Below, piece after piece: positions 1,570 to 3,663 of a DNA stretch of 64,000 nt; positions within the stretch are counted from its first letter, which is position 1, and each line of letters starts with the position of its first letter. This stretch comes from an uncultured Acidobacteriota bacterium. Its GTDB lineage: Bacteria > Acidobacteriota > Vicinamibacteria > Vicinamibacterales > JAKQTR01. Under the pieces are notes generated by a model. The model was given only the letters and a program-made list of their open reading frames with translations. It had not been told where the DNA came from and searched no databases. The stretch spans positions 234,523 to 298,522 of the forward strand of contig CAWEYM010000001.1 in NCBI GenBank assembly GCA_963813325.1, given 5' to 3'. Position numbers and translations under genes: made by a program.

Positions 1570-3663
1570 ATGCGCCACGCCCCCATCAAGTACGTCGAAA
1601 AGGGCCTGACCTACGTCGCCCACGGTGCCTGGACGCTCTACGCAGCGGCGAGCCGCGCCGCCTGGAAGCCGTCGTTCACCCCCCGGTGGTCAGACAAGCC
1701 CCTGCTCAAGTCGTGGGAAAAGACGAAGCCGCCGCTCGGCTTCCCGCGCGAGACCGATTCGCTCTGTCCGACGTGCGTGCGGGAGGCGCGCGCCGAGATC
1801 CTCGACGGCCGGAAGGACGTCTCGGTCCTGCTGACCGAAAAGGTCGGCGAGATCAAGGCGCGCATCATCGAGCGCGACGGCAAGATCCTGATGGTGAAGG
1901 ACTGCCCGTTGCACGGCCACTTCGAGGACGTGATGTCGATCGACCCGGCGATGTTCCGGCACCTCGAGGAGGTGTTCCCGGGCCGTGACATCCCGGCGCA
2001 CAACGACGGGACGCTGCACAATCATGGCAGCAGCACCATCAAGCACGGGCGCGGGTCGGTGCTCACGATCGACCTGACGAACCGCTGCAACATGATGTGC
2101 GATCCGTGCTTCATGGACGCCAACCAGGTCGGGTTCGTCCACGAGCTGGGGTGGCCCGACATCCAGCAACTGCTGGACAACGCGATCTCGATCAAGCCGC
2201 GCCGCCAGATGTCGGTGCAGTTCTCGGGCGGCGAGCCGACGCTGTCGCCCTTCTTCCTGGACGCCGTGCGCTACGCGAAGAAGGTCGGCTACAACAGCGT
2301 GCAGGCGGCCACCAACGGCATCGAGTTCGCGAAGAGCCCGGACTTCTGCCGCCAGGCGGCCGAGGCGGGCCTGCGCTTCGCGTACCTGCAGTTCGACGGC
2401 ATCGGCAACGCCGCGAACGCGCACCGGCGCGTGGGCAACCTGTTCGACGTGAAGCTGCGCGCCATCGAGAACATGTGGGCCGCGGGCATCGACATCGTGC
2501 CCGTCGTCACCATCGTCAACGGCGTCAACAACGAGCAGGTCGGGCGGATCATCGAGTTCGCGCTCGACAACCCGAAGAAGATCTCGTTCCTCTCGTTCCA
2601 GCCGGTGTCCTTCACGGGCCGCGACGAGGAGATCACCGACGAGCGACGGCACGCGCAGCGCTACACGCTGGCGCACCTGGCCCACGACGTGAAGAACCAG
2701 ACGGGCCTCGGCGAGCCGTCCCGCGACTGGTTCCCGATCTCCTTCATCAGCACGTTCTCGGACTGGGCCGACCTGGTGCACGGGCCCGCCGCAGAGTGGG
2801 GCCAGCTGAGCTGCGGCTGCCACCCGAACTGCGGCATCGGGATGGCCGTGATGGTCGACAAGGAAACGAAGGAACGCGCCGCAGTCACGTCGTTCCTCGA
2901 CGGCCCGCAGCTCGCGAGAGACCTCCAGGTGGTCAACGACGCCGCGCGCGGGCGGGCGTGGTCGGTCGCCGGGATGGCCCTGTCACTCCTGCGGAACTAC
3001 GACCCGTTCAAGGCGCCGTCCAAGCTGTCGATCCTCGGCCTGATGGAGCGGTTCGACAAGGCGTTCGGCGCCACCCGGCGCGACTACGGCAAGGTCGGCA
3101 ACGGGCGGACGATCGCTGACGTGCAGAAGCGGCGGTCGGACAGGTTCCTGTTCCTCTTCGTCGCCGGGATGTGGTTCCAGGACCTGTTCAACTACGACTT
3201 CCGGCGAACGGAGATGTGCATCATCCCGTACGCGACGCAGATGGGCGAGATTTCCTTCTGCGCCTACAACACGGGCATCGGCTGGCGGCAGATCATCGAG
3301 AAGATGCACATGACGGCGACGCTCACCAAGTGGTACGAGGAGCACGGCCGCCACGAGATCTTCGCGGGCAACAAGGCCGTGCCGCTCGCCAGCACGGCGC
3401 ACTCGCTCGTGTTGAACGCGGAGGCCGTGGCTGCCGGCGGGCAGACCGACCTCGTCGATGCCGGGATCGCGCGCAACGCCCGCGAGGAGAAGCTGAAGGC
3501 GCGGGACCAGCACAAGCAGGACGACCCGCGCTACCACGCGGAGATGGCCAAGCTGTACCGGCAGCACGTGCTGAAGGAGGATCCGAACCTGATCCCGCTG
3601 CAGATGCTCAAGAAGCCGGCCAGGAAGGACGCCGAGGCGGCCGTCCCGGGCGGCAACGCGTAG
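1570..3663 (+). CDS. Radical SAM enzyme of the Tes/GDGT-MAS (MJ0619-like) family; candidate membrane-spanning lipid synthase
   Basis: 697-aa ORF with GGAG-type RBS (gaggagagaggcATG). The N-terminus has a rubredoxin-like CPTC...DCPLHGHFED pair. The radical SAM motif is CNMMCDPC (nt 2086-2109), followed by SGGEPTL. Later Cys clusters (CGCHPNC, MCIIPY...FCAYN) could bind auxiliary Fe-S clusters. Confidence 0.7.
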   Translation: MRHAPIKYVEKGLTYVAHGAWTLYAAASRAAWKPSFTPRWSDKPLLKSWEKTKPPLGFPRETDSLCPTCVREARAEILDGRKDVSVLLTEKVGEIKARIIERDGKILMVKDCPLHGHFEDVMSIDPAMFRHLEEVFPGRDIPAHNDGTLHNHGSSTIKHGRGSVLTIDLTNRCNMMCDPCFMDANQVGFVHELGWPDIQQLLDNAISIKPRRQMSVQFSGGEPTLSPFFLDAVRYAKKVGYNSVQAATNGIEFAKSPDFCRQAAEAGLRFAYLQFDGIGNAANAHRRVGNLFDVKLRAIENMWAAGIDIVPVVTIVNGVNNEQVGRIIEFALDNPKKISFLSFQPVSFTGRDEEITDERRHAQRYTLAHLAHDVKNQTGLGEPSRDWFPISFISTFSDWADLVHGPAAEWGQLSCGCHPNCGIGMAVMVDKETKERAAVTSFLDGPQLARDLQVVNDAARGRAWSVAGMALSLLRNYDPFKAPSKLSILGLMERFDKAFGATRRDYGKVGNGRTIADVQKRRSDRFLFLFVAGMWFQDLFNYDFRRTEMCIIPYATQMGEISFCAYNTGIGWRQIIEKMHMTATLTKWYEEHGRHEIFAGNKAVPLASTAHSLVLNAEAVAAGGQTDLVDAGIARNAREEKLKARDQHKQDDPRYHAEMAKLYRQHVLKEDPNLIPLQMLKKPARKDAEAAVPGGNA

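Follow-up and report, generated by a model that had tools for sequence, protein, structure and literature searches.

A Tes-family radical SAM protein of a distinct acidobacterial clade, a candidate synthase of membrane-spanning lipids

A gene in a 64,000-nucleotide stretch of DNA from an uncultured Acidobacteriota bacterium (contig CAWEYM010000001.1; the whole stretch is referred to below as the window) encodes a 697-residue protein that is best explained as a peripheral, non-transmembrane radical S-adenosylmethionine (SAM) enzyme of the Tes/GDGT-MAS family, belonging to a distinct clade of proteins of ~700 amino acids (aa) that is conserved across the Acidobacteriota. By analogy with the archaeal tetraether lipid synthases of the same family, we judge it somewhat probable that this Tes-like protein makes membrane-spanning lipids. 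Lipids of the iso-diabolic acid type are the skeleton of the brGDGTs (branched glycerol dialkyl glycerol tetraethers), which are among the most used continental proxies for palaeotemperature and pH and whose producers and biosynthesis have been worked out only in part. Neutral and alkaline soils are rich in Acidobacteria of subdivision 6 (Vicinamibacteria), which have been named specifically as a possible origin of 6-methyl brGDGTs (bioRxiv 10.1101/2022.04.07.487437).

Long open reading frames (ORFs) arise by chance in DNA of 69% G+C, which is the composition of the source DNA here. The ORF at 1570-3663 on the forward strand starts with ATG and encodes 697 residues before its stop codon, and our ORF call agrees in this with a preliminary description of the window, which had placed a 697-aa protein there. 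We take this ORF to be a genuine gene, and not one of those chance products of high G+C, because its third codon positions are 96% G+C, a Shine-Dalgarno-like stretch, GAGGAGAGAGG, precedes it, its product contains two Pfam domains that each score above the cut-off (Radical_SAM at 1e-14 and Zn_ribbon_HMPTM at 1e-13), and a database search returned one identical protein along with more than 8000 scored homologues. The nearest homologues are 77-88% identical and are named as proteins of Vicinamibacterales or Acidobacteriota metagenome-assembled genomes (MAGs). No sigma-70-like promoter or Rfam element was found in the 244-nucleotide spacer upstream of the gene. Each sequence motif in the preliminary description was recovered from the translation at the position assigned to it: DCPLHGHFED (aa 111-120), CNMMCDPC with its radical SAM cysteines C173, C177 and C180 (nucleotides 2086-2109), SGGEPTL (aa 219-225), CGCHPNC (aa 415-421), MCIIPY (aa 549-554) and FCAYN (aa 563-567). 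The LCPTC motif is likewise present, at aa 65-69; the range of 66-69 given for it earlier covers only the span from C66 to C69. The protein contains 12 cysteines in total.

When the protein was compared with all sequences in the PDB, there was one strong match, GDGT-MAS (MJ0619; structures 7TOL and 7TOM), with an E value of 3.7e-60 to 7TOL over aa 94-592, and the runners-up, MoaA and SkfB, followed at 1e-5 to 1e-3. Identity to MJ0619 is 30.8% (pairwise E value 4e-66), and for the orthologues it is 29-32%. Among the NCBIfam models, NF045702 (tetraether lipid synthase Tes) scores best, with 297.6 bits. An AlphaFold2 model built from a 24-sequence alignment has a mean predicted local distance difference test score (pLDDT) of 80.8 and a predicted template modeling score (pTM) of 0.82. 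The top PDB matches of this model in Foldseek are again 7TOM and 7TOL (E value 7e-36, target-normalised TM score of 0.86 and root-mean-square deviation of 3.2 Å over ~550 columns), and the next fold match is MoaA with an E value of 9e-9 and a TM score of 0.5. Homology to Tes/GDGT-MAS across the whole catalytic body is established, which bears out the description of the protein as a full-length member of this group, and the protein almost certainly belongs to the Tes family.

The same searches bear on the possibility that the protein is a SPASM/twitch maturase of peptides or cofactors, or a radical SAM enzyme resembling TrsS. NCBIfam models for NirJ, AhbC, MoaA, the mycofactocin maturase and PqqE match it weakly, and TrsS (NF045646) reaches 208.3 bits over aa 94-379 only. 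However, the maturase matches lie within the radical SAM core (aa ~160-370) at E values of 1e-19 to 1e-5, far below their cut-offs, and the TrsS score falls far under its 490-bit cut-off and below the Tes score. In addition, the Pfam scan of the protein contains no SPASM domain, GDGT-MAS is the sole full-length fold match, and among the neighbours of the gene in 85 loci (the window and 84 related loci) there is no conserved gene for a partner or for a precursor-like peptide. The best matches do not fall in the SPASM group or another radical SAM subfamily, an outcome that the preliminary description had named as refuting its reading. A maturase or TrsS-like identity is therefore extremely improbable on these scores and folds, and we reject it.

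The protein shares the overall four-part fold of GDGT-MAS/Tes (MJ0619, MA_1486, Maeo_0574) and adds three elements to it, namely an N-terminal extension of ~55 aa, an insertion of ~25 aa in the zinc ribbon and a C-terminal tail of ~97 aa (Table 1). The terminal extensions had been pointed out in the preliminary description; comparison with MJ0619 and with typical Tes proteins, which have 500-550 aa, confirms them, and they are conserved in the orthologues. In the N-terminal extension, a moderately amphipathic helix at aa 4-30 (pLDDT 80-94) is followed by the conserved sequence PxWSDKPLLKSWEKTKPPLGFPR, and aa 31-60 are 74% conserved across 84 orthologues, the set on which all conservation values below are based. 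The zinc ribbon has C66, C69, C112 and H115 as its predicted metal ligands, all of which are invariant or nearly so in the alignment, and C112 and H115 occupy the places of C33 and H36 in GDGT-MAS, for which a CX2C...CX2H rubredoxin-like motif has been described (PMC9433317). The clade-specific insertion follows the CPxC at aa 70-93. The His-rich linker that comes next is 76% conserved and weakly modeled (pLDDT 59-64). The radical SAM core is 86% conserved and holds the CX3CX2C cysteines, F181, the GGEPT block and QPVSFTGR (Q344, S347, R351). The C-terminal domain carries C417, H418 and C421 in CGCHPNCG, M534, C550 in MCIIPY, Y554 and C564 in FCAYN; C564 and H418 are nearly invariant in the multiple alignment, and aa 521-600 are 90% conserved. 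The tail shows moderate to good conservation at GIARNAREEKL and MAKLYRQHVLKED, varies over its final ~30 aa and is modelled with low confidence throughout (pLDDT 33-70). The Lys/Glu-rich tail of ~90 aa noted earlier thus exists, at 97 aa, and its composition fits that label only roughly, since Ala is its commonest residue and it has 15 Lys/Arg and 13 Asp/Glu. Conservation is lower at aa 1-30, at aa 481-520 and in the distal tail. A transmembrane anchor was considered and ruled out because none is predicted and the highest 19-residue Kyte-Doolittle window is 1.47.

Table 1. Positions in the window of the Tes-like gene, of the parts of its product and of nearby genes
Feature	Positions	Strand	Residues	Remarks
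Complete gene, Tes-like radical SAM protein	1570..3663	+	1-697	Stop codon included; Pfam, NCBIfam, PDB, homologue and model evidence
Purine-rich Shine-Dalgarno-like stretch, GAGGAGAGAGG	1558..1568	+		Read off the sequence, just 5′ of the ATG at 1570
N-terminal extension	1570..1749	+	1-60	Without counterpart in MJ0619; found in this clade only in the alignment
Rubredoxin-like/HMPTM zinc ribbon	1750..1938	+	61-123	Pfam PF23545, 1e-13
His-rich loop, NDGTLHNHGSSTIKHGRG	2002..2055	+	145-162	At the position of the [Fe4S4]N motif CPxxCGxCxxH of GDGT-MAS
Radical SAM core	2059..2649	+	164-360	Pfam PF04055 at aa 169-331; covered by the 7TOL alignment
C-terminal auxiliary-cluster and lipid-pocket domain	2650..3369	+	361-600	Residues placed by the 7TOL alignment
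C-terminal tail	3370..3660	+	601-697	Without counterpart in archaeal Tes; charged, partly helical
Pyr_redox_3 flavoprotein	303-1325	+		
232-aa protein	3755-4453	-		Signal-like N-terminus, Lys/Pro/Ala-rich C-terminus, no Pfam match; convergent to the Tes-like gene
folE, GTP cyclohydrolase I	6484-7137	-		2.8 kb downstream of the Tes-like gene

The metal sites of GDGT-MAS have been defined in detail, which allows a residue-by-residue comparison. The archaeal enzyme has four such sites: a rubredoxin-like iron bound by C9, C12, C33 and H36; an N-terminal auxiliary [4Fe-4S] cluster, [Fe4S4]N, whose ligands are a His together with C73, C77 and C80; the cluster of the radical SAM site; and [Fe4S4]C, the C-terminal cluster, where a labile Met439 lies near the strictly conserved Tyr459. 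The substrate-sulfur intermediate forms at [Fe4S4]C, and Phe106, Gln268, Ser271 and Arg275 line the site for 5′-deoxyadenosine and SAM (PMC9433317). Equivalences were taken from the HMMER and 24-sequence alignments, with the 20-residue tag offset of the PDB chain checked through C33/H36 and C102/C105. By this mapping, the rubredoxin-like iron site is kept as C66, C69, C112 and H115 (predicted ligands), the radical SAM cluster as C173, C177 and C180, and the SAM/5′-deoxyadenosine contacts as F181, Q344, S347 and R351. The [Fe4S4]C cysteines are kept as C421, C550 and C564, which align to Cys residues of MJ0619 and have a predicted ligand role, and Met439 and Tyr459 correspond to M534 and Y554. 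The exception is [Fe4S4]N. Its His is retained as H159, but C73, C77 and C80 are replaced by T148, H152 and S155 in the sequence LHNHGSSTIKHGRG, and none of the 84 related loci has the CPxxCGxCxxH motif. The conservation of all cluster ligands, which the preliminary description had proposed to check, does not hold at these three positions, and of the extra Fe-S clusters that it had expected, the predicted C-terminal auxiliary cluster stands and the N-terminal [4Fe-4S] cluster does not.

Loss of the motif sets apart a whole group of proteins. A search of 1.84 billion cluster representatives yielded 588 at E values of 1e-30 or better, and the full-length representatives split into two groups. 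The typical Tes group is 27-35% identical to the query, has the CPxxCGxCxxH motif, passes the NCBIfam Tes cut-off with 463-593 bits and includes MJ0619 in the tree, whereas the window's group is 36-87% identical to the query, lacks the motif, fails the cut-off with 219-414 bits and excludes MJ0619. In a neighbour-joining tree from 484 well-occupied columns, the two groups are separated in 98 of 100 bootstraps and the ~700-aa core clade is recovered in all 100. One representative, P0182, is a typical Tes that has the motif, and its neighbours on the contig are murB and sigma-54 regulators. Its position next to murB marks it as bacterial, and because it keeps the motif, the loss of the cluster motif is specific to the clade and not simply a bacterial trait. 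The window protein carries every hallmark of the ~700-aa clade: the N-terminal extension (WSDKPLLKSWEKTKPPLG), the LHxHGSST..HGRG loop, CGCHPNCG, the C-terminal tail and a place within the monophyletic group.

The clade is widespread in the phylum. A scan of species-representative genomes found at least 590 relatives, with identities and taxa available for the best 80, which match the window protein at 71-83% identity over essentially the full length. Nearly all of these 80 are labelled Acidobacteriota, from Vicinamibacterales, Bryobacterales/Bryobacteraceae, Terriglobales/Acidobacteriaceae and Blastocatellia, and named carriers include a Candidatus Solibacter usitatus MAG and Paludibaculum (Bryobacterales) as well as Acidipila rosea DSM 103428 and Terracidiphilus (Terriglobales). 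Identity above 70% across classes of the phylum indicates strong purifying selection. Four of the loci (L007, L018, L026 and L079; 71-78% identical) come from MAGs labelled Betaproteobacteria, 'uncultured proteobacterium', Bifidobacteriaceae and Bordetella, and these discordant labels probably reflect mis-binning or mislabelling of acidobacterial contigs.

Some relatives depart from the residue pattern of the clade. P0135 (Terriglobus roseus DSM 18391, WP_014786616.1), a divergent protein of the clade, is 41% identical and keeps the zinc ribbon and CX3CX2C, but it lacks all three C-terminal cluster cysteines, reading AHPDAS and having no Cys corresponding to those of MCIIPY or FCAYN. P0150 and P0185 are degenerate in the same manner, and P0142 lacks CX3CX2C. 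These four probably represent paralogues that have another function or no function.

Proteins of both groups have appeared in earlier surveys. Zeng et al. listed 456 Tes homologues from bacteria and proposed that they act in making brGDGTs (Zeng 2022, PMC8941075). In that study, E. aggregans, which makes both iso-diabolic acid and brGDGT, has a single Tes homologue with 32% identity to MA_1486 at an E value of 4e-61, and closer homologues occur in K. versatilis (42%) and S. usitatus (40%). S. usitatus has two homologues (Halamka 2022, PMC10087280, Table S5): Acid_5929, with 545 aa, 40.2% identity and an E value of 1e-139, and Acid_2410 (Q025C7), with 714 aa, 30.1% identity and an E value of 4e-62. 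By their lengths, their reported scores and their MAG orthologues, Acid_2410 and the E. aggregans protein appear to be of the window's type. They have the same similarity to archaeal Tes (30-32%, E values of ~1e-61), and the orthologues in the Solibacter MAG, Acidipila rosea and other Acidobacteriota share every clade-specific feature of the window protein; nothing substantive distinguishes the Acid_2410 group from it apart from the host lineage, here Vicinamibacterales-like with a genome of 69% G+C. The typical bacterial Tes proteins (Acid_5929, the K. versatilis protein, P0182) share the superfamily, the domain order and the proposed role in membrane-spanning lipids but differ in keeping CPxxCGxCxxH, passing the equivalog cut-off and grouping with archaeal Tes. 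The idea of a membrane-spanning iso-diabolic acid or brGDGT synthase is thus already published (Zeng 2022, PMC8941075; Halamka 2022, PMC10087280), and what is new here is a Vicinamibacterales orthologue of acidobacterial Tes homologues that had already been noticed. In the accessible literature, we found no description of a clade without the N-terminal cluster, of its conservation across the phylum or of its better match to iso-diabolic acid.

This match concerns which Acidobacteria make the lipid. Sahonero-Canavesi et al. found no homologue of mss in Acidobacteria and Tes homologues in only three of 14 iso-diabolic-acid producers at an E value of 1e-50 or lower and an identity of at least 30%, and they concluded that an alternative pathway exists (Sahonero-Canavesi 2022, PMC13159169). 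The ~700-aa clade sits at the 30% identity line and may be under-counted in such surveys. Mss (Thermotoga maritima, Thermoanaerobacter ethanolicus) is also a radical SAM enzyme, couples fatty acyl chains tail to tail and has been proposed to have its catalytic architecture in common with Tes, but by its published description it is only remotely related to Tes and is found in anaerobes (PMC13159169, PMC13274423). Iso-diabolic acid is reported from subdivisions 1, 3, 4 and 6 (PMC13274423, citing Sinninghe Damste 2018). The four groups that bear orthologues among the best 80 of at least 590 relatives correspond to these subdivisions. Judged from sequence, the distribution of the ~700-aa clade would fit iso-diabolic acid better than that of typical Tes does.

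If the protein works as the archaeal enzyme does, it would join the terminal carbons of two iso-C15 glycerolipid chains to give membrane-spanning lipids of the iso-diabolic acid type. The CX3CX2C cluster would cleave SAM to a 5′-deoxyadenosyl radical, which would take a hydrogen from a chain terminus in the hydrophobic pocket, and the resulting substrate radical would be held, through a C-S bond, by a sulfide in the C-terminal [4Fe-4S] cluster (C421, C550, C564 and the labile M534). A second SAM would then generate a radical on the second chain, whose attack would form the C-C bond. Electrons would enter through the rubredoxin-like site (C66, C69, C112, H115) without the N-terminal [4Fe-4S] relay of the archaeal enzyme. 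In support of this scheme, the model and the alignments show conservation of the fold, the CX2C...CX2H and CX3CX2C motifs, the SAM/5′-deoxyadenosine contacts, the predicted [Fe4S4]C ligands and the equivalents of Met439 and Tyr459, all in common with GDGT-MAS/Tes. The presumed substrate differs, being iso-C15 acyl or alkyl chains on glycerol-3-phosphate here and phytanyl ethers for archaeal Tes. An ester-linked bacterial substrate is plausible because ester-linked phospholipids from E. coli bind in the pocket of GDGT-MAS (PMC9433317).

The genes around the Tes-like gene were compared by clustering all ORFs from the 85 loci, with the closest, Vicinamibacterales-like loci inspected individually. 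The Tes-like gene is accompanied by the flavoprotein gene, by that of the small secreted protein, by folE and by a LON_substr_bdg gene in only eight to 18 of the 85. The flavoprotein belongs to a mixed ORF cluster found in 18 loci and lies immediately upstream and divergent in about six, the most window-like ones, and homologues of the 232-aa protein occupy the same position in 10 other loci (L002, L004, L005 and others) without being phylum-wide. A 46%-identical relative has entirely different neighbours. Beyond the gene for the 232-aa protein in the window are genes for a GntR regulator and a CitMHS transporter, followed by folE. As nothing is conserved beyond ~20% of the loci, gene neighbourhood was dropped as functional evidence; genomic context neither supports nor contradicts the lipid hypothesis.

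Genomic context does bear on one further reading, in which the protein would be a pterin C-methyltransferase (7,8-dihydro-6-hydroxymethylpterin dimethyltransferase, HMPTM) linked to the nearby folE. Many orthologues are so named by JGI, the Pfam zinc ribbon bears the HMPTM name, and folE is near the gene in related loci as well as in the window. However, the name stems from the original annotation of MJ0619, whose activity was not reproduced by Lloyd et al., and the pocket of GDGT-MAS is hydrophobic and lipid-filled, at odds with a pterin (PMC9433317). Moreover, folE is adjacent in only 10 of the 85 loci and on the opposite strand, and those inspected (L001, L004) are Vicinamibacterales-like, so that context argues against the reading that folE and the JGI name suggest. 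We regard a pterin methylase as very improbable and, on the pocket and the folE counts, reject it.

Three further observations concern the rest of the window, in which no Rfam families or tRNAs were found. A TonB-dependent receptor gene with CarboxypepD_reg (7317-10422, forward strand) is split over two frames, with overlapping ORFs at 7317-8672 and 8167-10422, and its 966-aa homologue from L002 aligns in frame 3 to ~8183 and in frame 1 from ~9055, which looks like a frameshift near 8170-8200 due to a pseudogene or a sequencing error. Between 48001 and 50000, G+C drops to 0.63 from ~0.70 elsewhere, with no tRNA or Rfam match there, and this dip lies between two ABC-transporter genes, each with ABC_membrane and ABC_tran, at 47122-48969 and 50432-52201, both on the reverse strand. 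Finally, a 721-aa ORF at 10544-12709 (reverse strand) has a coding-like G+C content at third codon positions, a signal-like N-terminus and no Pfam match at E values of 0.001 or lower.

The Tes-like protein might instead have the Tes fold but perform a different radical reaction on a hydrophobic substrate, such as another lipid-tail modification, an intramolecular macrocyclisation, a cross-link or the insertion of sulfur supplied by the C-terminal cluster. Iso-diabolic acid would then come from the typical Tes paralogue where present or from an unrelated enzyme. Such a reaction would suit the separate clade (98 of 100 bootstraps), the identity to MJ0619 of only 29-32%, the scores under the Tes equivalog cut-off, and the loss of one cofactor site together with the gain of conserved extensions. 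Furthermore, S. usitatus holds both types, which suggests that they are not redundant, and MA_1114, the second Tes homologue of M. acetivorans, made no glycerol dialkyl glycerol tetraether (PMC8941075), so paralogues within the family differ in output. On the other hand, the radical SAM site, the C-terminal cluster cysteines and the equivalents of Met439 and Tyr459 are kept and ~90% conserved, the distribution of the clade agrees with iso-diabolic acid among the best 80 of at least 590 relatives, and most iso-diabolic-acid producers lack typical Tes or Mss at published thresholds (PMC13159169). We consider a different reaction unlikely, and with it this other origin of iso-diabolic acid.

Several points nevertheless count against assigning membrane-spanning lipid synthesis to this protein. 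With 297.6 bits, it does not reach the 450-bit equivalog cut-off of the Tes model (NF045702), and without the [Fe4S4]N ligands it may receive electrons in another way than the archaeal enzyme and might also differ from it in chemistry. Subdivisions 8, 10 and 23 make no iso-diabolic acid, which is lacking in Holophagae, Thermoanaerobaculia and Thermotomaculum as well; absence of the clade from those subdivisions is hinted at by one published BLAST only, a family-level search in which Thermoanaerobaculaceae were negative at a threshold that the ~700-aa clade barely meets. No neighbour conserved in more than ~20% of the 85 loci was found, nor did the Pfam scan of 30 further proteins of the window, to 54 kb, turn up a lipid, ether-lipid or other radical SAM gene; the scanned part contains transporters, peptidases and nucleoside metabolism genes. 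Searches of the literature found no biochemical or genetic test of the ~700-aa clade, and as of 2025 the activity of bacterial Tes homologues is unconfirmed (PMC11868695). Published attention and the culture correlations in S. usitatus and K. versatilis have gone to the typical, 40%-identity Tes paralogue, and PMC13023045 cites 2025 work that connects 'Tes' with the iso-diabolic tetraesters of K. versatilis and the brGDGTs of S. usitatus.

We tentatively put forward the ~700-aa paralogue without the N-terminal cluster, and not the archaeal-type Tes, as a possible general synthase of iso-diabolic acid and membrane-spanning lipids in the aerobic Acidobacteria of subdivisions 1, 3, 4 and 6. Even if the protein is not such a synthase, it still ranks, in a phylum that is dominant in soil, among the uncharacterised radical SAM enzymes with the highest conservation. 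If it is one, this would account for the low yield of stringent searches with archaeal Tes, which detected homologues in three of 14 producers only, and the clade would constitute a natural Tes variant that runs on two [4Fe-4S] clusters rather than three. An iso-diabolic acid synthase in the ~700-aa clade would also provide a single-gene marker for producers of membrane-spanning lipids in soil metagenomes. Should the proposal prove true, the ~700-aa paralogue would be the entry enzyme to soil brGDGT biosynthesis, and the loss of its surface [4Fe-4S] cluster and the gain of its extensions would have adapted a Tes-type enzyme to a bacterial host that lives aerobically and to substrates with ester links.

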